A stretch of 64,000 bases of DNA. Source: a virus. Below, in pieces: positions 369 to 54,685 of the stretch (positions are counted from its first letter, which is position 1; every line of letters begins with the position of its first letter). A program made the position numbers and the translations under genes. Below the pieces are notes generated by a model. The model ran no database searches, was not told the origin of the DNA, and saw only the letters and a list, made by a program, of their open reading frames with translations. The stretch covers positions 32,001-96,000 of the IMG/VR virus record IMGVR_UViG_3300047089_000152; one strand, given 5' to 3'.

Positions 369-1396
369 ATATCCCCTCGACCGCCGAACTTCTACTCCGC
401 GCCGACTGGGCGCGTCCCCGGTCTCGGCAGACAGCGCTGGGCATGTCCGACCTCGGTGGGTGTCGTCGCCGTGCCGGATATCAGCTGGCCGGTTACCAGC
501 CGGAGAAACCAAGCGGATCAATTCAAGCTGTCATTGGCACGGCAGTGCATGATGCCGTGGATGCCGCGCTGAAAAAGATGCGCGAAGACGGGATCATTCC
601 CGCCGACTCGGTCATCAACGAGGCCGTCTCGTTTGGTGGCGTCGTAGGGCACCCGGACCTTTATGTGGACGGGGTACTCAGGGATGTTAAAACTCTCGGG
701 TATGGGGCGCAGCTGGCGAACGCGAAGCTGTACGGTCCGAAGCGGCAGCATCTGTGGCAAGTCATGACGTACGCCGCAGCCTGTATCCTCGCGGACCGGC
801 CGGTGCGCACTGTCCAGATTGATTACCTTGTCAGGGATTCCGGTGAAAGCTGGATATGGGAAGGGCCGTTCGATTTCGGGCAGGTCCGCGAGGCGATGCA
901 GTGGCTGGAATCGGTGCGGGAAACGCCGCTGGAATTCCTCGCCAGGGATTACGCTCCAGATTCGGCGACATGCAAAGGCTGCCCGTTCTTCAACGCCTGC
1001 TGGGACGGCCACGTGGTCGACCGTGACGAACGATCCGTCCTGCTAGTCACCGATGACGACGCGGTGCAGTGGGCGCTGCGACTGGAAGTAGCCCGGGAAC
1101 GGATCAAGACGGCGAAAGAAGAAGAAGCCCTGTCGAAAGGCGCGCTCGACGGGCTACGCCCTAACGACAAGGGAAAGGCGGAAATAAAATTGACTGGCTA
1201 CCCGAAGACTCTGCGCTGGACAGTCACTACGCGGAAGAATCTGGACACCGAAGTAATAAAGCAAGATTATGCGAGGGGCGGCATTATGCCGCCCCTCGCA
1301 TCGAGCGAAAGCGTCCGGTTGGAGTTGCTCGCGCCGCGGGATGAGGATTTATCCTGCCTATCCAATCCCGGCCGCTCCATGCCAAGCCATGCCTAG
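365..1396 (+). CDS. Cas4-like / RecB-family PD-(D/E)XK exonuclease
   Basis: GTxxH, GHPD..DVKT, QxxxY motifs; Fe-S cysteines (GGCRR ... CKGCPFFNAC); GTG365 start. Confidence 0.85.
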   Translation: MNIPSTAELLLRADWARPRSRQTALGMSDLGGCRRRAGYQLAGYQPEKPSGSIQAVIGTAVHDAVDAALKKMREDGIIPADSVINEAVSFGGVVGHPDLYVDGVLRDVKTLGYGAQLANAKLYGPKRQHLWQVMTYAAACILADRPVRTVQIDYLVRDSGESWIWEGPFDFGQVREAMQWLESVRETPLEFLARDYAPDSATCKGCPFFNACWDGHVVDRDERSVLLVTDDDAVQWALRLEVARERIKTAKEEEALSKGALDGLRPNDKGKAEIKLTGYPKTLRWTVTTRKNLDTEVIKQDYARGGIMPPLASSESVRLELLAPRDEDLSCLSNPGRSMPSHA

Positions 1397-1413
1397 CCGC
1401 GCCTATCCCTTGC
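1351..1413 (-). ncRNA. satellite pentamer guide array S1 (11 pentamers + GGCA)
   Basis: minus strand GCAAG GGATA GGCGC GGCTA GGCAT GGCTT GGCAT GGAGC GGCCG GGATT GGATA GGCA; TATGAT -10 at 1426-1431(-). Confidence 0.7.
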
Positions 1414-11319: not shown

Positions 11320-11453
11320 GGACCGGAAGGGAAAGGCTGGGCGCGGCAGGCATCGCAGCGGCCGGGATAGCAGCGGATCGGAGCGGCAGGACAGGATTGG
11401 CAGGGCACGGCTGGGCTAGGTGTGGCTGGGCTGGGAACGGAATGGATTGGACA
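11320..11453 (+). ncRNA. satellite guide array S2 (13 pentamers, GGCA, 13 pentamers)
   Basis: 5-nt periodic GG(C/A)NN; TGG-TACGCT -10 at 11296-11304. Confidence 0.75.
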
Positions 11454-11520: not shown

Positions 11521-12186
11521 ATGCCACCACGCAAGACCACCACAGGCGGACCAGTCCAGCTCACCAGGCTGGCAGAAGAAGTCGCCCAAATCCACATCGC
11601 CGGGGCTACGCCACTTATTATTCATAAATGGTCGGAAAAGGCGCTCAACCAGATGCGGATCGCCCAGTCCGGGGCAATTAAGCCGCCCCGCGAACCCAAG
11701 AACGCCGAAGAAAACGCCCACGCGGCAACATACTGGGTCGACGTCGCCGAGACGATCCCCGGCATCCCCAGCGTCTCATTCAAGGCCGCCATGGTCGGAG
11801 CCTGCCGGTTCTTCGACGGCCTCCCCATGACGACAGCAAAATTGCTGTTCTTCGTCGACGGGGTCGTCAGCGAAGCCAAGGGCGACGCGCCAGCACGCGA
11901 CCTGCTCGTCCCGATTATCTCCGGCCCTGGGGAAATGCGGGAAGACACCCCGCGCAACGACAACGGAAACCCGGACCTCCGGTACAGGAATCAGTTCTTC
12001 CCGTGGAAAGCCGTACTCAACGTGCGGTTCATGCCCGCGAAGATCGCCCCCGAATCCGTCATCGCGCTAGCTGACGCCGCCGGTCGTGGCGGTGTCGGAG
12101 AATGGCGTCCATCCGCACCGAAAAGCGCGACTGGCACATACGGCCAGTTTCGTGTCATCACCCGGAAGGAATGGGAGTCGGCCTAA
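11521..12186 (+). CDS. stand-alone Cas7/RAMP-like RNA-binding protein (Vipr-like effector)
   Basis: I.G.TPLIIH start, PGIPSVSFKAAM..AC, C-terminal Gly-rich loop GRGGVGEWRP...GTYGQFRV; flanked by guide arrays. Confidence 0.8.
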   Translation: MPPRKTTTGGPVQLTRLAEEVAQIHIAGATPLIIHKWSEKALNQMRIAQSGAIKPPREPKNAEENAHAATYWVDVAETIPGIPSVSFKAAMVGACRFFDGLPMTTAKLLFFVDGVVSEAKGDAPARDLLVPIISGPGEMREDTPRNDNGNPDLRYRNQFFPWKAVLNVRFMPAKIAPESVIALADAAGRGGVGEWRPSAPKSATGTYGQFRVITRKEWESA

Positions 12187-12187
12187 A

Positions 12188-12745
12188 ATGGCGACCATCA
12201 CCGTCGAACAGCAGTGGGCGTTCAAATCGGGTGCGCGTGTCCCGGGTGGCGTCCACGCCGAGGATGTGGTGCGTGAGAAGGAACAGATGGAAGACCACCT
12301 GGGCCGCCTCGCCACCACGGAGGAAGCCGCGGAAATGGTCCTCCGCTGGCCTACCAAGTACAAGGCGCACCGGGCGTTCGCACCGGCAACCGAGAAAGAA
12401 GCACTCCACGAAGCAGTGGTACGCGGTGTTCGGAGCGCCTGGAGTTCCGTGATTCAGGTCGACGTCGAAATCACCGAGGTCACCAACCGGATTTCCGGTG
12501 ATATCGAGATCGCAACCAGGCGTGTCGACGCACCCGAAGTGAGATGGTTTCACGCCGTGCCAGCACGCGTCGGCGACACGCAACGAGTTTATGACTCGTT
12601 GCCGAATATCGCAGCCGATGCTGACAAGGAAGCGGCGCTGTCCGAAGATCTCGCCACGCAAGCACGCAACTTCTCCGCAAAAGTAGCCAGCGTCACTGGC
12701 GAGCTGGCGCGGTTGCACAAGTTGCGCAGCACCGCCGGAAATTAG
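12188..12745 (+). CDS. accessory protein of the RAMP/array locus, function unknown
   Basis: starts 2 nt after the RAMP stop, ends immediately before the array leader hairpin. Confidence 0.7.
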   Translation: MATITVEQQWAFKSGARVPGGVHAEDVVREKEQMEDHLGRLATTEEAAEMVLRWPTKYKAHRAFAPATEKEALHEAVVRGVRSAWSSVIQVDVEITEVTNRISGDIEIATRRVDAPEVRWFHAVPARVGDTQRVYDSLPNIAADADKEAALSEDLATQARNFSAKVASVTGELARLHKLRSTAGN

Positions 12746-12790
12746 ACCACCAGGTTCCGGCCGGGGAAACTCGGCCGGAACCTGGTCGGT
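12746..12790 (+). other. array leader hairpin with GAAA tetraloop
   Basis: ACCAGGTTCCGGCCG-GG-GAAA-CT-CGGCCGGAACCTGGT: 15 perfect pairs plus G.U and G-C. Confidence 0.85.
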
Positions 12791-12794
12791 AAGG

Positions 12795-14073
12795 GGAGTG
12801 GAGGGGCAGGGACTGTCGTGGCAAGGAACGGCAGGGCACGGAGTGGATTGGCAGGATAGGCTCGGCGCGGCCAGGCGGGGAGCGTTTCGGAGTGGCATGG
12901 ATTGGCTGGGACTGGCAGTATCGGATCGCAGTGGTCAGGGTAGGCAAGGCCCGGCCAGGCGGGGCTCGGTATGGCCTGCACTGGCGGGGAACGCAATGGA
13001 GTGGCAGGACCGGTGTGGAATGGCTGGGACGGGAACGGCGCGGTAGGGAATGGAGTGGCAGGAACGGTGGGGCCGGGCGCGGCGCGGCTAGGCTCGGCGC
13101 GGACGGGCATGGATTGGCTGGGCAGGACAGGATCGGAGAGCAGGGGGCTGGCGCGGCATGGCACGGAGAGGCAGGAGAGGAACGGTCGGGACAGGAGCGG
13201 CAAGGAGCGCACCGGCAGGCAGCGGCAGGGAATGGCATGGAACGGACTGGATTGGCAGGACAGGACCGGCATGGCCAGGAGGGGCATGTCCTGGAATGGA
13301 ATGGCAGGAATGGCTGGGTACGGCGGGGCCGGGCGAGCATTGGACAGGACCGGCAGTCGCGGAAGGGCTCGGCAGGGACCGGATTGCAGCGGCGAGGATG
13401 GGCTAGGCAGGAGCGGAACGGCAGGGCATGGCCTGGATCGGAGCGGCTGGGCAGGATAGGCATGGATCGGCCTGGGTAGGCAAGGAGGGGCTGGGACGGG
13501 ACCGGATTGGCAGGGCAGCAGTGGAGAGGCAAGCCGTGCAATGGCGGGGCGGGGCGTGGCATGGACTGGACCGGCAGGACTGGACTGGACTGGATTGGAG
13601 AGCAGGGCAGTGGCAGGGATCGTAGGGGTTCGGACGGGCAGGTTAGGCTTGGACGGGCTAGGCGTGGCATGGGCCGGCAAGGAACGGCTCGGAGCGGCAG
13701 GGATTGGCACGGCTCGGAGTGGCAGGACCGGACGGGTACGACGTGGCGTGGCTGGCATTGGCAAGGACTGGCAGGAGTGGATTGGCAGGGCCGGGCTTGG
13801 CATGGCGTGGCTGGGAATGGCGTGGCAGGACAGGTGGGGCTTGGCGGGCCGGGGATCGGCACGGATGGGCATGGCATGGCCCGGTAGGGCATGGCAGCAT
13901 TGGACTGGACCGGACCGGCAAGGCTTGGCTTGGCTGGGATCGGATGGGAACGGCAGGAGCGGAGCGGACTGTCGTGGCATGGCATGGCCTGGCGTGGCGC
14001 GGATCGGACGGGCAGGATAGGTCGGGCGTGGAATGGAACGGACGGGCTGGGCATGGAACGGCAGGATAGGAGT
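12795..14073 (+). ncRNA. main guide array: 237 GG(C/A)-NN pentamers in 21 GGCA-delimited segments
   Basis: 237x5 + 21x4 = 1269 nt accounts exactly for 12795-14063, then GGATA GGAGT; segments of 8-17 pentamers. Confidence 0.85.
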
Positions 14074-14279
14074 GACCCGCAGGGCTACTGTCGGGGTGGG
14101 CCGCGTGCCCCGGCAGAAGTTCGGCGGTGGATGATCTTGTGCTCGTGCGGCCATCCTGCGGTCGAGCATGACCTGAACCGTTCGGAGACTAAGCGAACAG
14201 TTTGCCTGACCACCGAACGGACTACGAAATGTCCGTGCGTGCTATATTCACCAGACCTTCGTGATACACTAGAGGTACA

Positions 14280-15149
14280 ATGAACGAGACCATAGAACGA
14301 GAAGACCGCAGGGCCGTCACCGCGCTCACCTCCGGGGAAAACGCCACGAAGGTCACCGTCAAAACAAGCGACGGCAACTACGAAGAACGACAGCTAACCG
14401 TCCACGGGCTCGCACGGCTGATTCCCGTGATCGCACTGGGCGACATGGACCGGCTGATAGACGACGTGCGCGAACACGGCGTCCTCGAACCCCTGATCAT
14501 GTTCCAGGGACAAGTCCTTGACGGACGCAACCGGCTCGCCGTAGCTTCGGTCGTCGGCGTACCCGTGCAGCTCACCGAATTCGACGGAGACGAAGCCGCA
14601 GCCAGAAACTTCGTCTGGTCCGCGAACGCTGCGAGGCGGCACCTGTCCGTCCCCCAGATCGCGCTGGCCGCTGAACGGTTCGGTTTCGTCGACGCCGCCA
14701 AAGCCGAAGCAGGCCCCGACGACCCCAACCTGGATATCCGCTCGACGGTCGCACCATGGGCGCGAATCGCCGCGCGAAAGGTCGGTGCGATCACCCCGGC
14801 TACACTGGAACGGTTCCAGCAAGCCAGGATCCCCGAGGCACCCGACACGATGCGCCGGGTCGATTCCGGTGAGATCCGCCGGGTCGACGTCGCGGTCAAG
14901 GAAGCGGTCGCGGAGCGGACCGTGCTCACCGGCCGTCTCATCCAGGTTCCACCCCCGGTTGCGCGTACCGCGTGGGACCGGCTGGGCTGCGCGCGGGGTG
15001 ACGTTCTCGCCGCGGAACGCGCCATCCTGGCAGGGGACTGGGGTGGGATGGAAAGGGACCAGTTCGCTGTCCGCGCCCGTGAAATCCAGGGAGCCCTGAT
15101 CAGGATTCAGAATTTGTATCGTTATGGATCGGGCGGCAGGACCGGTTAG
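14280..15149 (+). CDS. ParB N-terminal domain protein
   Basis: L..DVREHGVLEPL...GQVLDGRNRL...SANAARRHLS. Confidence 0.8.
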   Translation: MNETIEREDRRAVTALTSGENATKVTVKTSDGNYEERQLTVHGLARLIPVIALGDMDRLIDDVREHGVLEPLIMFQGQVLDGRNRLAVASVVGVPVQLTEFDGDEAAARNFVWSANAARRHLSVPQIALAAERFGFVDAAKAEAGPDDPNLDIRSTVAPWARIAARKVGAITPATLERFQQARIPEAPDTMRRVDSGEIRRVDVAVKEAVAERTVLTGRLIQVPPPVARTAWDRLGCARGDVLAAERAILAGDWGGMERDQFAVRAREIQGALIRIQNLYRYGSGGRTG

Positions 15150-15207
15150 GACGGGCTAGGAATGGCTGGGCTGGGCATGGACTGGAATGGCAGGAATGGA
15201 ATGGCTA
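15135..15207 (+). ncRNA. satellite guide array S3
   Basis: GGCA + 10 pentamers (15139-15188) + GGCA + 3 pentamers; overlaps the ParB stop and the next ATG. Confidence 0.8.
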
Positions 15208-15473
15208 AGCCGGATTTCGCCCACGGCGTGCAAGGCTACAACTGGCACAAGTGCCGGTGCGAACAGTGCCGGGCGGCTAACTCCGCCCGGTCCCGTACCT
15301 CCCGCGCTGCCCGCAAAGCACGCACCGCGGCGGGTGACCCCGCCGTCCCGCACGGGACCAGGGGCGGGTACACCAACTGGGCGTGCCGGTGCCTGCCATG
15401 CTCCCAGGCCAACAGCGAGGCGTGCCTGGAATACCGGAACGCCCACAGTAACCGTCAGGACATCGTGACCTGA
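15201..15473 (+). CDS. small Zn-binding protein
   Basis: two HG..GY...CRC..C..AN repeats. Confidence 0.7.
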   Translation: MAKPDFAHGVQGYNWHKCRCEQCRAANSARSRTSRAARKARTAAGDPAVPHGTRGGYTNWACRCLPCSQANSEACLEYRNAHSNRQDIVT

Positions 15474-27931: not shown

Positions 27932-28369
27932 TCACACCTGACCCTGGAGAGCCCACAAGGACTCCATCAAGAACGGGTACGGCCTCGCACCAGGATGATG
28001 CACGAGCGGCCCGAAATACCCCGTCGCGTAATTCGACAGCGACCAGGCCCCAGACGATTCGATGACGTGCGGTTTCGTGCCCCTCTCCAGGAACTGCGCC
28101 GCACCCGACGCGGACACCTCAGACCACGGCGTATCCGAACCGATCGCATGCAGATACGAATGGATCGAAGCGGCCGTCCCACCCGGTGGGGTCGACGTCC
28201 CCGGCCGCCCGCTCTTACCCGGCGACCCCACCACCCGCTTACGGACCTTCGCCCGGGCATACACCGCCGCCCGGCCACCCAGCTCCTGCATCAGATGCGC
28301 GACAGGGCCAAGAGGGTCATTCAGGAAAGCGCGGATCTCAGCCTCGCTGAACTTCACGCGTACACCCAT
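27932..28369 (-). CDS. HK97 gp10-like tail/neck protein
   Basis: FLE.GTKPH.I...V.HPG.RPYPFL. Confidence 0.75.
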   Translation of the reverse strand: MGVRVKFSEAEIRAFLNDPLGPVAHLMQELGGRAAVYARAKVRKRVVGSPGKSGRPGTSTPPGGTAASIHSYLHAIGSDTPWSEVSASGAAQFLERGTKPHVIESSGAWSLSNYATGYFGPLVHHPGARPYPFLMESLWALQGQV

Positions 28370-28647
28370 CAGACCTCCCCGTCCCATTCGACACCCAGCG
28401 AAGCCATATGCTCGCGGAGCTGATCCTTCGCCGTCGATTCCGCACCCTGATCTGCGTACAGCTCGTCCATGAACTGCTTCTTCTGCTCCTCATCCAGCGG
28501 GTTAGTGATACACGCCAGGGCTAGGTTGCACGCTTGCCGCGGGGTGAGCGACGTGATACCGCGGCCTGTCTTGTAGATCTGACCGCCGTCGATTTCCGCG
28601 AAGTGCTCTGCCGCCCAGCCGAGGAGCTGGAAGGCGACTCGGTAGGG
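28369..28647 (-). CDS. -1 frameshift extension of tail assembly chaperone
   Basis: start-less 92-codon frame PYRVAFQLLGW...GEV* beginning at CGC CCT A; TGATG overlap with the next gene. Confidence 0.75.
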   Translation of the reverse strand, partial: PYRVAFQLLGWAAEHFAEIDGGQIYKTGRGITSLTPRQACNLALACITNPLDEEQKKQFMDELYADQGAESTAKDQLREHMASLGVEWDGEV

Positions 28648-29084
28648 CGCGCCGCGATCAGCTTGATCGCCTGGGCCACCACATCCATCAGTTCCTCAGC
28701 ATCAGCCTTGCACCGCACCGCATGATCCTGGAACCTGTCCCAGTCACCTTCACCTGCGAACGCGCAGTCCCGGGCAGCGGCACTTTTCCCCGCTTCCTTA
28801 CAGCCAGGGCAGTTACCGCACGGATCCTCATCTTCCAGGATCACGTCCCGCAGGATCTCATACATCGCCGCGTACGCCCGGTCATCATCGGTCCGCAGGT
28901 TCGCCGCGTGGCTGAACTTCAGCAGCGGCATCAACCCGACCTTCTCCGAAACGCGGAAAGACTCCCCGGCCAGCGTGATAACCCTGGCCGGGGAGATGAC
29001 TTCCCCGGACAGCTCCGGGTCTGTTGCCTGCTGTAGCTCGATCGCGCCGCGTTCCGCAGCGTCGTCCATCTCTTCGTAGTCCAC
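28521..29084 (-). CDS. tail assembly chaperone
   Basis: position after major tail gene; ARPT + Ser-rich tail. Confidence 0.75.
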   Translation of the reverse strand: MDYEEMDDAAERGAIELQQATDPELSGEVISPARVITLAGESFRVSEKVGLMPLLKFSHAANLRTDDDRAYAAMYEILRDVILEDEDPCGNCPGCKEAGKSAAARDCAFAGEGDWDRFQDHAVRCKADAEELMDVVAQAIKLIAARPTESPSSSSAGRQSTSRKSTAVRSTRQAAVSRRSPRGKRAT

Positions 29085-29652: not shown

Positions 29653-30708
29653 TCAGTGTTCCAGGAGTTCCAGCAGGCGTTTCGCGTTGCTGGTGAACGT
29701 GCGGTCAGCGATAGCCTCACGCGCTTTGTATGCCGCCTGTTCCCGTTCACTATCGTGGGCGAGCCACCAGCGGATCTGATCCCCTGCCTCTTCCGGGCTG
29801 GAGAACGTAGGGAGCATGTCCAGCACCGAATCCCCCTCCGCGCGGGGATCGCGGAGGTAGAAAAGCCCGCACGCCGCTTGTTCCACCTCACGGGGCCCCA
29901 TCGCCCACGGGACGGCGGTGCTGTCAGCGTCCGCGTCGTCGTATTCGCGGCGGTAAAAGTTGATGCCGCACTTCGCGTTGCGGTACACCTCGGCCACTTC
30001 GCTGTTGTCGACACAGTCGTCAATGTCATGGCCCATGAACCTGCGCAGCGGAGACTTCGACGCCCCCGGCCAGCAGCCCCCCAGCAGCACGTCCAGGCCG
30101 TCCAGGTTCATCCGCTCGAAAAAGTCGATGCGGGACTGGAACCCCGTCCCGATGAACGCCAGGTCCGCCGCGAGGTCCACGTTGACAGGGCCCGTGCGAG
30201 GGTAATGCACGGAAGGCCGGTACGCGTGCGGCGCATACTCCGCGACGGCACCTAGCTCCCGGTACTGCTCAATGTTCACCGGGTCGTTCAGCAAGACGAT
30301 GTCGCTGCATTCCGCGCGTTCCAGCTGCATCTTTTCCTGGTACGGCGACTCGGTGGCGAGCAGGACAACTTTCATCCGCCGCTGCTGAAGCAGGGCCATC
30401 AGCCCCGGGGTGACGAAGAAACCGGAAACGAAAATAACCGCGTCTGGCCAGAACGTGAAAGCCGCATGAGAGATGCCCTGCATCGCCATGCGCAGCGCGT
30501 CCTCGTCGTTCATCGCCCGGCGTACCAGCGGGTGCCCCGACTCGTCCACGTCCCCCGTGGAAATCAAAGCATGACCGTAAAATTGTATACGATCATCAGA
30601 ATTAAAACTGGCAACTTCACACCCAAGCTCCCGCAGCGCCTCACACCAACCGTCATGCACATCAGCCACAGAAAAATTTGGGCCTGGATGTACCACTAGT
30701 ATGCGCAC
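29653..30708 (-). CDS. glycosyltransferase (CgeB-like, GT-B)
   Basis: FIGTGF.SR...VYRNAKCGIN...R.VE.AACG...RT; GTG30708. Confidence 0.75.
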   Translation of the reverse strand: MRILVVHPGPNFSVADVHDGWCEALRELGCEVASFNSDDRIQFYGHALISTGDVDESGHPLVRRAMNDEDALRMAMQGISHAAFTFWPDAVIFVSGFFVTPGLMALLQQRRMKVVLLATESPYQEKMQLERAECSDIVLLNDPVNIEQYRELGAVAEYAPHAYRPSVHYPRTGPVNVDLAADLAFIGTGFQSRIDFFERMNLDGLDVLLGGCWPGASKSPLRRFMGHDIDDCVDNSEVAEVYRNAKCGINFYRREYDDADADSTAVPWAMGPREVEQAACGLFYLRDPRAEGDSVLDMLPTFSSPEEAGDQIRWWLAHDSEREQAAYKAREAIADRTFTSNAKRLLELLEH

Positions 30709-30748
30709 GGAAGCATCATCCTGTCCTAAGTGTGGTAGGATAGTAATT

Positions 30749-30864
30749 GCATTGGAGGGGCATGGCATGGCACGGCCCGGAGTGCTGGGGTGGGGAACGG
30801 AATGGATGGGCAGGATAGATCCAGGTTGGTGCGCATCTTTTACAGGTGCGCACCAACCTGGATC
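30749..30864 (+). ncRNA. satellite guide array S4 plus 18-bp hairpin
   Basis: 12 pentamers 30749-30808, GGCA, GGATA; TGG-TAGGAT -10 at 30733-30741; inverted repeat 30818-30835/30847-30864. Confidence 0.8.
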
Positions 30865-31250
30865 AGAAATGAGCATCCCATGTATTGCTGGCCGGCGTAT
30901 TCGGTGAGTCCGTAGGTCATCACCTGCAATACGACCGTGAACTCCACCGCCCCGCCCAGGGTCGGGTCAGCCTGCACCGCCGCGTTGATGCTTTTAGTAC
31001 CGGACGTGGACACGTAGTCGTCGATTACGTCCTGGCCGGAAGCGTCGTTCGCGGCGGATACCAGCACGACGGCGAGGAGATTGACCTGGGTTTCGCCGTC
31101 CATCGTGATGCCGTAATTGACCGCTGGCCGGTTCGGGATTATGACCGCGCATGGCGGTATGACCTGCCCGGGTGCGATCGCGTGTACGTTCAGCCCGGTG
31201 GTGGATAGCCGGGTTGCGAGCGCGACCCTGATCGCTTTGACGTTAGCCAT
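30840..31250 (-). CDS. tail terminator / completion protein
   Basis: SI.AA..ADPTLGG motif; position. Confidence 0.7.
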   Translation of the reverse strand: MANVKAIRVALATRLSTTGLNVHAIAPGQVIPPCAVIIPNRPAVNYGITMDGETQVNLLAVVLVSAANDASGQDVIDDYVSTSGTKSINAAVQADPTLGGAVEFTVVLQVMTYGLTEYAGQQYMGCSFLIQVGAHL

Positions 31251-31331
31251 CTACGGGCGGTCCTTGCATGTATGGCCCTTCTTGGTCCAGTAGACCTTCC
31301 CGCATATGCCGCACGCTTTCGTCATCCCCAT

Positions 31332-32267
31332 CTATACGCCGACTTTCCCGCGGCCTCTGATGTAGCAGCGGAGCTGCTCCGCGATCCACGGGTTAGGATT
31401 CAACCGGACAATGCCGAGGTCAGCCATACCCATGACACCCCAGGGGGCGTCTTTCAGCTTGAACCAGTCCGAGGCGATCAGCAGCGCCGCCTGGGTAACC
31501 ACGGGCGGGACCTGCGGCCAGCCGAACACGCCGGTGATCTGGACCCGGTCGAGGTGGACGAACGGCCAGATGAACGGGAACCAGTTCGACTGCCCGATCA
31601 CCTGAACCTGCGTGTACGGTTTCGGTTCACCGGAGGCGAGCTGGTTGAACTGGCCGTCGCCGACGCGGAGCATGTAGTTGGTGTTCTGCGTCCATGTCGT
31701 CTCGTACACCCCGTCCCCGTCACTGTCGATTTTCAGGGACGTGACGGACACCAGGTCATCGACGGGGAGCAGCCAGATGTCCTGCGGCTGGTATGTGCGC
31801 GTGTCGGTGAACCGGAAGAAATGCCTCCCGCAGTACGTGTCAATCCACCGTGACGTCGCCAGGCAAACCGAAGCGATCACCGAATCGGTGGCAGGGTCGG
31901 TTTGCCCGAGTCGGTCTTTCAGCTCCTCGGGTCCCACGTACCAGCGTGGCTGGTCCAGCGCCAGTACCCGCCACGTTCCGGGCTGCACATCTGATGCGGT
32001 ACCAGTGCCGATGAAGGCGTAAGACCAGAGGCCGTCGATGTTTGCGACCGCGGGGGAGCACGGCACGATCAGCTGGTACACGCCCGTGCTGGTCTTGGTG
32101 ATGTCAGCCGGGGCAGTGCCAGCGAAGGTGTGGATTGTCTGGGTTGCGGCCGGGTCGGTGATTACGCACGACACGGCGGTCGGGTCGGTGGGGGTGCCGG
32201 ACACGGTGAATGTCGCGACGATCGTGGCAAGCTCGTTCACATTGTCGTAAAACACCGTCGCAGTCAA
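31332..32267 (-). CDS. head-tail connector (gp6/gp15-like) with extra N-terminal domain
   Basis: YV..EELK.RL...SRWID.YCGR.F...GWP.VP..V.QA. Confidence 0.8.
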   Translation of the reverse strand: MTATVFYDNVNELATIVATFTVSGTPTDPTAVSCVITDPAATQTIHTFAGTAPADITKTSTGVYQLIVPCSPAVANIDGLWSYAFIGTGTASDVQPGTWRVLALDQPRWYVGPEELKDRLGQTDPATDSVIASVCLATSRWIDTYCGRHFFRFTDTRTYQPQDIWLLPVDDLVSVTSLKIDSDGDGVYETTWTQNTNYMLRVGDGQFNQLASGEPKPYTQVQVIGQSNWFPFIWPFVHLDRVQITGVFGWPQVPPVVTQAALLIASDWFKLKDAPWGVMGMADLGIVRLNPNPWIAEQLRCYIRGRGKVGV

Positions 32268-47627: not shown

Positions 47628-48911
47628 TCATCCTGCCGCCATATGTGAGTCGAAGAAATTATCCTTCGGGCCGATATGGGAACGGAACTTGTACTTACGG
47701 ATCAATTCCTCGCGGATTCCCACGAGGTCTTCTGAACTGAGTTCCGCCGTGCGGACCACGGAATCGGTACCCATGTTCTTTTGCCCGTAGGCGCCAAGTC
47801 CTTCTCCAGTAAATATCAGGTCGGTAGCTATTCCCTCGTCCATTTCCCGCCTGAATTCTGTGCCGCGATAAGGATAATAGATAGCAATCTGCGCATCATC
47901 TATCCCTGACGTGCAGATGAACCGTTCAGTCTCCGCGATCGTAGCGCGTGTCTCGCCGGGTAGCCCGATCATCACGAATGCTTTCACGGTGATGCCCGCA
48001 TCCTTGCAGTACCGGACACAATCGTAATTCTGCGTGGCGGTTGTCTTCTTATCCATCCGGTCTAGCATCTGCTGCGACCCGGATTCCGCACCAAACGCCA
48101 CCTCGACACACCCCGCATCGGCTAGCGCCGCGGCGAACTCCGCGGTCATGAATTTCGCGTGCACATTGCAGCGAAATCTTAGCCCGGAGCGCTTGAGTAG
48201 GTCCAGGTACGGCTGGCACTTCCCCAAATTAATTGCAAAAAGATCATCATACAAATACACGCCCTCATACCCGAGCGTCACGATGTCGTCCAGTTCGGCC
48301 TCGGCGTTGCCCAGCGAAGTCCACCTGGTCAGCGTCCGCGCGTCTTCACAGAACTTGCACGCCATCGGACAGCCCCGGCCGAGCATCATCGTGGTCGAGT
48401 TCAGCCCGGCCAGGGTGTACGAGTAGTTTTTCAGGAACCCAGGCTCACCCAGCCGGTCCGGGCGGGGCATCGCCGCTAGTTCCTGCCGGGGGATCTGGTC
48501 GTTGCTCATGACAGGAACCGTTTTGTTCTGCACGATGCCTGGCAGTGCCCGCTCCCCGTCGCCTGCCACCAGGTAGTCCCACAGCCCGGCCTGGTCGTCT
48601 GCGTTCATCTCCCGGCCGTAATGCCGGACGTGCGGGCCGCCTGCCACCAGAACTTTGGACGGCCAGCGGCTCCTGATCGCGCGGGCTATCCGGTTAGCCT
48701 CGGCGCGCTGCGGTGTCATCACCGAGACGCCTACTATGTCAGCGTCCGCGAACTGGTCCAGATCCTCGACGTCGTATTCGTCTACGACGCTGATCTTAGT
48801 ACCGGGGGCCTGCGCGGCCACCGCGGATTTCAGGTACAGCAGGCCGAGGGGCGGGTAGATACGGTCGTCGTCCAGGAACGGGGACCGGCAGGAAACCAGG
48901 GACAGTTTCAT
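47628..48911 (-). CDS. B12-binding radical SAM enzyme
   Basis: PPLGLLYL..GGPH; RGCPMACKFC; GAESGSQ; IGLPGET. Confidence 0.9.
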   Translation of the reverse strand: MKLSLVSCRSPFLDDDRIYPPLGLLYLKSAVAAQAPGTKISVVDEYDVEDLDQFADADIVGVSVMTPQRAEANRIARAIRSRWPSKVLVAGGPHVRHYGREMNADDQAGLWDYLVAGDGERALPGIVQNKTVPVMSNDQIPRQELAAMPRPDRLGEPGFLKNYSYTLAGLNSTTMMLGRGCPMACKFCEDARTLTRWTSLGNAEAELDDIVTLGYEGVYLYDDLFAINLGKCQPYLDLLKRSGLRFRCNVHAKFMTAEFAAALADAGCVEVAFGAESGSQQMLDRMDKKTTATQNYDCVRYCKDAGITVKAFVMIGLPGETRATIAETERFICTSGIDDAQIAIYYPYRGTEFRREMDEGIATDLIFTGEGLGAYGQKNMGTDSVVRTAELSSEDLVGIREELIRKYKFRSHIGPKDNFFDSHMAAG

Positions 48912-54199: not shown

Positions 54200-54556
54200 T
54201 CAGGATTTCCTGGCGGGCCGGGCCTTATTCATAGATTTCGCGGGCTTTTTAGCCGCGGGCTTAGCCGCAGCAGGCTTCGCTTCGGCAGCAGGCTTCGCGG
54301 TCTTCGCGGCAGCTGAATCGCCCTTACCCTGCGAGGATGGCAACTCCGGGTATTTCCGACGGACCGCTGCCTGAACTTTTGCCTTCTCCGCAGGCGTCCC
54401 ATTCGCCGCAACTCGTGACAGGGCGTTAGCGCCCCGTGCCTTAGAGTTAATAGGGTATGCGTCAGCACCACCAGGACCACCACCAGGCAGCGCATACGAC
54501 CCAGCCGGCGCGGCAGTATTAGGCGCAGGCTTACCGGTCTTCTTCCTCGGTGGCAT
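54200..54556 (-). CDS. small basic head-region protein
   Basis: YPI..ARGANALSRV...V.RKYP plus Lys/Ala tail; GGGAG RBS. Confidence 0.7.
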   Translation of the reverse strand: MPPRKKTGKPAPNTAAPAGSYALPGGGPGGADAYPINSKARGANALSRVAANGTPAEKAKVQAAVRRKYPELPSSQGKGDSAAAKTAKPAAEAKPAAAKPAAKKPAKSMNKARPARKS

Positions 54557-54575
54557 ATAATCTCCCTTAGTGCCA

Positions 54576-54685
54576 GGTATGGAGGGGTGCGGCTTGGCGT
54601 GGCTTGGCGGGGCGCGGCGGGGATTGCATTGGATTGGATTGGCAGGAACGTCACTGACCTGCACCTACGCGGTGCAGGTCAGTGA
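54576..54685 (+). ncRNA. satellite guide array S6 plus 15-bp hairpin
   Basis: 13 pentamers 54576-54640, GGCA, GGAAC; TATAAT at 54556-54561; inverted repeat 54651-54665/54671-54685. Confidence 0.85.

Follow-up and report, generated by a model that had tools for sequence, protein, structure and literature searches.

S3, a probable solo VIPR guide whose gapped match lies in the adjacent gene of its own phage genome

At the 3′ end of a 289-residue open reading frame in this virus genome lies S3, a short tract of GG-phased pentamers that raises two questions: which sequence do the variable positions of its pentamers specify, and on whose DNA would they act? The window analysed is a stretch of 64,000 nucleotides, corresponding to bases 32001–96000 of a single virus record of 104,150 bp; our scans for self matches covered both strands of the full genome. 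Within the window, a phased GGNNN pattern with six GGs occurs 123 times against an expectation of 0.16, and S3 is one of a series of such tracts, comprising a staggered array of 21 guides and seven dispersed ‘solo’ guides, which share the window with a homologue of the RAMP protein Vipr:

1354–1408, minus strand: solo guide RNA (vrRNA), with no significant self match genome-wide
11320–11453, plus strand: a pair of short tracts 5′ of vipr, of 6 and 13 pentamers, neither matching self significantly
12795–14068, plus strand: main staggered vrRNA array, 1.27 kb and non-coding; a dynamic-programming parse divides it into 21 units, made up of 237 pentamers and 21 GGCA tetramers, and needs no indel
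15139–15193, plus strand: solo vrRNA repeat tract S3, 11 pentamers of the form GG-(A/C/T)-NN, the last unit being GGCAG
30749–30808, plus strand: solo vrRNA S30754
47506–47570, plus strand: solo vrRNA S47506
54576–54640, plus strand: solo vrRNA S54576
58454–58508, plus strand: solo vrRNA whose self matches genome-wide are not significant

The third position of the S3 pentamers is A in five units, C in five and T in one, resembling the main array, and with 11 units that each start with GG the tract falls within the 9–16 pentamers expected of a guide. A generic scan for sigma-70 promoters and terminators around S3 returned nothing; the -10-like element listed here is putative. The immediate surroundings of the tract are as follows:

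14280–15149, plus strand: target gene of S3, 289 amino acids, labelled ParB-like in the initial annotation; phrog_21315, function unknown, with a DGRNR motif
15096–15127, plus strand: near-cognate S3 target, 11 codons (LIRIQNLYRYG) at the 3′ end of that reading frame
15117–15122, plus strand: putative S3 promoter, a -10-like TATCGT with TTG before it, inside the target and 16 nt 5′ of the first pentamer
15135–15138, plus strand: GGCA punctuation tetramer, immediately 5′ of the first S3 unit and forming the same GGCA/GG boundary as the main-array units
15193–15206, plus strand: three residual pentamer-like units in staggered register, overlapping the start of the gene that follows and its ribosome-binding site
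15192–15473: gene 3′ of S3, encoding a small Cys-rich protein

To decode the guide, the dinucleotides at pentamer positions 4 and 5 are taken in series, reverse-complemented and laid on DNA as NNx, such that every third base is skipped. Read in this way, S3 agrees with 15096–15127 at 20 of 22 first and second codon positions (0.91). The initial annotation had listed the dinucleotides of ten GG-x-NN pentamers at 15139–15188 and reported an 18/20 match to 15099–15127; the sequence reads as it described and the score is reproduced, with the eleventh unit (GGCAG, 15189–15193) fitting the grammar too and extending the match to the higher figure. Between the end of the match and the first pentamer there are 11 nt, and the match keeps the frame of ORF 14280–15149, so that the skip falls on the third base of each codon, both as previously claimed. 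Across the whole genome, on both strands, the runner-up scores for S3 are 14/20 and 16/22. Shuffled guides had been suggested as a control, and in 300 order-shuffled versions of S3 the genome-wide maxima averaged 14.8 +/- 0.7 with a top value of 17, none reaching 20. We also scored a panel of control schemes (five dinucleotide offsets combined with periods of 2, 3, 4 and 6), in which the sole outlier was offset 4–5 with period 3 (z 7.6); the same scheme was the sole outlier for S47506, and a period of 5 finds just the array itself. The gapped code in S3 is thus confirmed as a real feature, with chance excluded.

Decoded as codons, the guide specifies L, I/M, S/R, I/M, Q/H, Q/H, I/M, Y, R, Y, G; the contrast drawn earlier between a guide-encoded IRIQ(Q/H)(I/M)YRYG and the phage's own IRIQNLYRYG is therefore a correct decoding, the two differing at a pair of adjacent codons (N and L in the phage, not Q and I). 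Two other ways of reading the tract were tried and rejected: pairing of the third guide base with the wobble base, for which agreement is at chance level (3/11), and translation of the array complement as quintuplets, which meets two stops.

The rule is exactly the ‘1 nt skip rule’ published for VIPR, a phage-encoded DNA silencer akin to CRISPR whose first description came in 2026 preprints, and S3 is a further example of a known mechanism; the interpretation first put forward for the gapped code is supported as essentially right, the mechanism having already been published. As set out in the available text of the preprints, VIPR consists of a phage-encoded ancestral RAMP protein (Vipr), an accessory gene (vap) and vrRNAs of 9–16 GGYNN repeats, with ‘a related consensus’ allowed for the guide motif; the NN dinucleotides specify dsDNA by the skip rule, the skip usually falling on the codon wobble position; arrays are staggered with a 1-nt overlap, the outcome is transcriptional repression, and the natural targets are competing phages and satellites (bioRxiv 10.64898/2026.04.26.720920). 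The accompanying cryo-EM account has G1G2Y3 sequestered, N4N5 paired with target N1N2 and x3 flipped into a pocket (10.64898/2026.04.26.720927), dsDNA being recognised on either strand via an R-loop triplex (10.64898/2026.04.26.720920, 10.64898/2026.04.26.720927). Solo or ‘orphan’ vrRNAs are described as matching self less well than rivals (10.64898/2026.10.15.759431). The preprints count 664–667 loci. Targets are called in the VIPR preprints at a cutoff of 0.8 identity, and their available text reports no self matches at or above that value; it also describes EMSA and reporter tests of VIPR pairing as already done for phage SUSP1 (2026 VIPR preprints). We assign S3 as a solo vrRNA because Vipr homology, array grammar and the skip rule all agree with the published system.

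The protein side of this assignment comes from two genes that precede the main array:

11521–12186, plus strand: vipr, encoding a 221-aa RAMP (Cas7/Csm3-like) protein, phrog_4652, just upstream of the main array
12188–12745, plus strand: candidate vap (accessory) gene of 185 aa, following vipr, with no detectable family

The 221-aa protein has no Pfam match; its identity to Mycobacterium phage Quico gp57 is 48% and to Gordonia phage Ecliptus gp19 39%. Each of these two genes directly adjoins GGNNN tracts, and tblastn finds the 221-aa protein in 33 phage records. An AF2 model built with a 36-sequence alignment has a pLDDT of 84 (34 for the single-sequence model). Foldseek places Csm3 and type VII Cas7 as its best matches (E 6e-6), and an exhaustive VIA-align search gives Csm3 (Z 10.5) and Cmr4 (Z 10.1), with the top ~30 matches all CRISPR RAMPs. 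Comparison by hhalign of the window family with SUSP1 Vipr returns a probability of 95.8% (E 6.6e-9), the alignment covering the G-loop with its GVGDWRP motif. Vipr proteins are small (~20 kDa) RAMPs with a single RRM, a G-loop and a thumb; with both a predicted RAMP fold and a G-loop, the product of 11521–12186 is classed, on the strength of model and alignment, as a Vipr homologue. The candidate vap product is dissimilar both to phrog_15946, the partner in Quico, Ecliptus and UmaThurman, and to SUSP1 vap1. In 5 of 5 genomes checked (Quico, ByChance, Ecliptus, UmaThurman and Cy-LDV1), GGNNN arrays adjoin the Vipr gene on the same strand and carry GGCA punctuation; conversely, a relative of the present phage (G001; 119 kb, 97% complete) possesses neither vipr nor arrays, such that guides and vipr occur together and are missing together.

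Pentamers of the main array have G at position 1 in 100% and at position 2 in 90% of units, A or C at position 3 in 92% (A ~48%, C ~44%), and all 16 dinucleotides in near-uniform use at positions 4–5. Its guides gave no gapped match above shuffles against the phage's own genome, the relative G001 or the five other VIPR phages. With a 5-nt period, 4-nt punctuation and no longer direct repeats, the arrays do not form a repeat-spacer array as in CRISPR, where unique spacers separate identical repeats of 20–40 nt. GC-rich inverted repeats flank the main array: a GAAA-loop hairpin just before it (12760–12795) and a second stem after it (14068–14110).

Set beside published VIPR, the locus is alike in having a Vipr RAMP gene that adjoins tandem pentamer guides of 9–16 units with hypervariable NN, units that abut with a 1-nt overlap (GGCA/G), some guides free of the vipr locus (fig. 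S18 legend, 10.64898/2026.04.26.720920; 10.64898/2026.10.15.759431), a 1-nt skip on the wobble position, and guides whose fit to the alleles of rivals equals or exceeds their fit to self. It differs in that position 3 is here A or C (GGM) rather than a pyrimidine (GGY); in that solo guides, each with its own -10-like box and three with terminator hairpins, occur in a VIPR-positive, 104-kb actinophage-like genome, which also contains, at distances of 11 nt to 0.7 kb from them, near-cognate copies of what they target; and in that the self identity of S3 (0.91) exceeds the 0.8 cutoff, where the preprints, in their available text, found no self matches. Compared with the type II VIPR locus of Escherichia phage SUSP1 (KT454805: vipr 28474–29061, vap1 28031–28471 and four vrRNAs), we see the same Vipr C-terminal G-loop region, pentamer grammar on the strand of the gene and decoding rule; Vipr similarity is, however, detectable for just ~55 residues at the C-terminus, the two accessory genes are unlike, and the SUSP1 guides are separate ~100-nt genes with a conserved pseudoknot tail, whereas here they form a staggered array with no long conserved 3′ tail. 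Two of these differences, position 3 being A as often as C and the lack of a SUSP1-like pseudoknot tail, count against the VIPR assignment. With Csm3, Cmr4 and Cas7 of class 1 CRISPR systems there is a shared RAMP fold (Z 8–10.5), one protomer per RNA repeat period and a thumb that interrupts guide–target pairing at intervals; VIPR is distinguished by its period of 5 nt, two paired bases per subunit and asymmetric offset (three guide bases versus one target base), and by being phage-borne with no repeat-spacer array, an unsystematic look at the module having brought no other cas genes to notice.

S3 is not alone in matching a neighbour. The best genome-wide match of S47506 is 20/26 (0.77) at 48226–48263 (minus strand), in frame within the radical-SAM gene 47628–48911 (minus strand), a score reached by 0 of 300 shuffles; that of S30754 is 19/24 at 31132–31166 (minus strand), in frame in ORF 30840–31250 (minus strand); and that of S54576 is 19/26 at 54504–54541 (minus strand), separated from the guide by 35 nt and lying in the frame of ORF 54200–54664 (minus strand), the last being weaker alone in that 31/300 shuffles equal it. 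For 4 of the 7 solo guides the best match in the genome is thus no more than 0.7 kb away, in an adjacent gene of the phage itself (binomial P ~2.5e-5 by our own arithmetic, taking a 3-kb window in 104 kb). All four matches are in frame, with the wobble base skipped, and each of the four guides is complementary to the sense strand. Upstream of the other solo guides, by 7–19 nt, are -10-like boxes (TGGTAnnnT, TATAAT or TATGAT), and strong hairpins follow three. The S54576 target sits just upstream of that guide's own TATAAT box; the targets of S47506 and S30754 lie 0.3–0.7 kb off, past terminator hairpins, within genes and away from promoters.

What, then, is the gene matched by S3? The label ‘ParB’ given to it initially finds no backing: there is no Pfam match even at E 10, and no match among NCBIfam models or PDB sequences, leaving phrog_21315 as the only family hit; the DGRNR motif is visible, and is by itself no test of ParB membership. 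Scans of genome contigs for the ParB-like gene found nothing. Metagenomes supply about 78 clusters of homologues; among 73 clusters, five, namely P0124, P0131, P0137, P0146 and P0152, end in exactly LIRIQQIYRYG, the allele decoded from S3, and ten more fit at 10/11 positions, the phage's own LIRIQNLYRYG fitting at 9/11. This suggests, at the level of sequence comparison, that the guide is directed at rivals and sits beside a near-cognate self allele.

Relatives lacking the guide fill in this picture. G001, in which the ParB-like protein is 67% and the radical-SAM protein 77% identical, carries no S3 after the homologous gene; nor does contig L009 (5,956 bp; homologue 71% identical), on which there are no arrays, and two more distant relatives are likewise without S3. 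The L009 allele scores 20/22 against the S3 guide, fitting both codons at which self mismatches and mismatching at two others. S47506 matches the allele of the vipr-null G001 better (22/26, 0.85) than the self allele, and for S30754 and S54576, several units that mismatch in self are matched in G001. Such a mosaic is what would be expected if the guides are cognate to alleles circulating in related phages, the linked allele of the carrier differing at a few, often adjacent, codons; it parallels the published difference between self and rival scores.

Taking these observations together, we consider it highly probable that S3 is a solo guide-RNA gene of the phage's VIPR system, acting as in SUSP1 and aimed mainly at rival phages that carry the cognate allele. 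Its transcription would start at the -10-like element, inside the final codons of the preceding gene; one Vipr protomer would occupy each pentamer, 11 in all, with GG and the third base hidden and NN presented; the resulting Vipr–S3 filament would engage dsDNA at 11 successive triplets through two complementary bases each, the third target base being flipped out unread, and transcription would be blocked. The near-cognate allele of the carrier would meanwhile remain tightly linked to S3, 11 nt away. Several findings count against rival targeting: the self match is equal to that of the best rival DNA available (L009) and exceeds the 0.8 cutoff; the AG of the guide fits the phage's own rare AGG Arg codon, not the CGN found at that position in L009 and L003; and IMG/VR scans, which were for exact matches only, returned 0 for the S3 pattern, for S3 with the Arg relaxed and for the S47506 pattern.

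Whether the proximity of solo guides to a near-cognate target of their own is deliberate is a separate matter, on which we lean somewhat towards doubt. Two versions can be envisaged. As a poison-antidote arrangement, linkage could keep the guide and a tolerated allele together through frequent actinophage recombination and could drive both into rivals. Free-standing homing endonucleases of T-even phages, with their marker exclusion, offer a precedent of this kind, in which a selfish weapon sits beside a gene whose foreign alleles are attacked and the linked own allele is protected by its differences; the likeness is one of analogy only, no nuclease being evident here and resistance of the self allele being hypothetical, and published VIPR represses transcription rather than cutting. 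In the other version the linkage would be a self-regulatory circuit, for which the S3 site, in its high identity and its coverage of S3's own putative promoter, would be suited.

Taken on its own, self-regulation holds that S3 and the other solo guides serve the phage as regulators of itself, and that Vipr–S3 binds 15096–15127 of its own genome and represses the S3 promoter and/or read-through from the gene upstream into those downstream, giving a feedback or timing circuit and no weapon. The self site overlaps the putative promoter of S3, covering both the -10 element and the region upstream of it, so autoregulation fits this overlap equally well, and a similar placement is seen for S54576. 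Together with the self identity above the threshold of the preprints, the fit to an AGG codon that is unusual and replaced by CGN in relatives, and the lack of an exact IMG/VR match, this makes autoregulation a serious rival reading; the A/T-rich wobble positions of the self targets, as compared with relatives, would in addition ease DNA opening. We nevertheless judge it unlikely, since S3 decodes exactly to the allele of other phages and not to self, S47506 fits the vipr-null relative better than its own genome, the targets of S47506 and S30754 are in genes at a distance and not at promoters, and published VIPR guides, in the available accounts, lack self matches of 0.8 or more and act on competitors.

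The initial annotation described S3 as antisense to the coding strand, implicitly a model in which the RNA pairs with the upstream mRNA, possibly in cis, and blocks its translation or stability. The geometry would allow this, S3 being on the same strand as its target and 11 nt downstream, and complementarity to the sense strand in 4/4 matched cases points the same way, albeit with a likelihood of 1 in 16 by chance. ‘Antisense’ in this sense need not imply action on RNA, as by analogy with published VIPR either strand of dsDNA could be bound; the biochemistry and cryo-EM, as far as the available text describes them, show dsDNA recognition with an R-loop triplex, and two-base helices between 1x3 loops would be unstable without a protein filament. 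We regard RNA-level antisense as very improbable. That the match is numerology can be rejected as next to impossible: many degrees of freedom were available at the outset (pentamer positions, spacing, strand) and S54576 alone is not significant genome-wide, but the shuffles and control codes exclude it, 19 alternative schemes yielding nothing, one scheme placing the best genome-wide match beside 4/7 guides and always in frame, and the skip having been established independently in the literature.

Returning to S3 as a guide aimed mainly at rivals, the analysis re-derives the noncontiguous VIPR code independently from raw sequence and extends it to a large actinophage-like genome from soil or rhizosphere that carries 21 guides in a staggered array and seven solo ones. 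Beyond what the VIPR preprints present in their available text, it adds the best matches of 4/7 solo guides in an adjacent gene of the same phage and the S3 self match overlapping its own putative promoter; if true, a poison-antidote or self-regulatory linkage would be a use of VIPR absent from the available text of the three preprints. The useful lead is a genetic one, namely a guide beside the gene family that it decodes to, with the decoded allele in relatives and the phage's own allele a few codons apart. Linked guide and allele of this kind suit asking how many mismatches, and at which positions, are compatible with VIPR action, by what means carriers escape self-binding or turn it to use, and whether the linkage amounts to drive.

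Some further features of the own target sites deserve mention. Their wobble positions are A/T-rich, mostly T: 9/11 at the radical-SAM site (top 0.12% of coding windows) and 6/11 at the S3 site, the same codons in relatives (L009:2023–2055, L011) having C or G, and wobble T and A accounting genome-wide for 12% and 9%. Promoter content or easier opening of the DNA may lie behind this, as may some other cause. One -10-like word, TTGTAT followed by 3 nt, recurs in both of these self targets (15114–15122; 48244–48252, minus strand), and in both the mismatches land in this motif, the guide reading AT against TT in self; they include both of the S3 mismatches and, at the radical-SAM site, both of those in its 11 central units. 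The radical-SAM gene itself encodes a B12-binding, methyltransferase-like protein whose top NCBIfam match is PhpK (E 3.5e-28, far under the family cutoff). Elsewhere, the 5′ part (30559–30873) of ORF 29653–30876 (minus strand) has a very A/T-rich wobble and overlaps S30754 on the opposite strand; the true start of this ORF is probably further downstream.

Two DNA metagenome runs, from rhizosphere and soil (n=2), contain identical short contigs ending at 15134, at the array, with no variants. The closest VIPR-positive relative (P0002 and P0127; 8,671 bp, probably one contig) has a Vipr that is 93% identical but a ParB-like protein that is just 72% identical and differs at its C-terminus, which reads LIRIQSLYRFG; this points to mosaic exchange around the array.

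Our survey of other Vipr phages also flags mis-annotation, deposited ‘hypothetical protein’ CDSs lying over GGNNN vrRNA arrays in mycobacteriophage and Gordonia phage genomes: examples occur in UmaThurman (2125–2448 of our locus L005), ByChance (1133–1291 of L007), Florinda and Philus, and these are probably spurious ORFs. Cy-LDV1 (L006/W04, 30500–32104) has vipr, an excisionase and two arrays around a phrog_15946-like gene with an HPLHPAFEWDD motif; it is labelled a Cylindrospermopsis cyanophage, yet has a G+C content of 67%, and the host label may be doubtful. Finally, in the Gordonia phages Ecliptus (L002, 1064–3915) and ODay (L008) the module, which comprises vipr, the array, phrog_15946 and two HTH genes, is flanked by the genes for the tail assembly chaperone and the tape measure protein, and looks like a mobile insertion into a structural operon.
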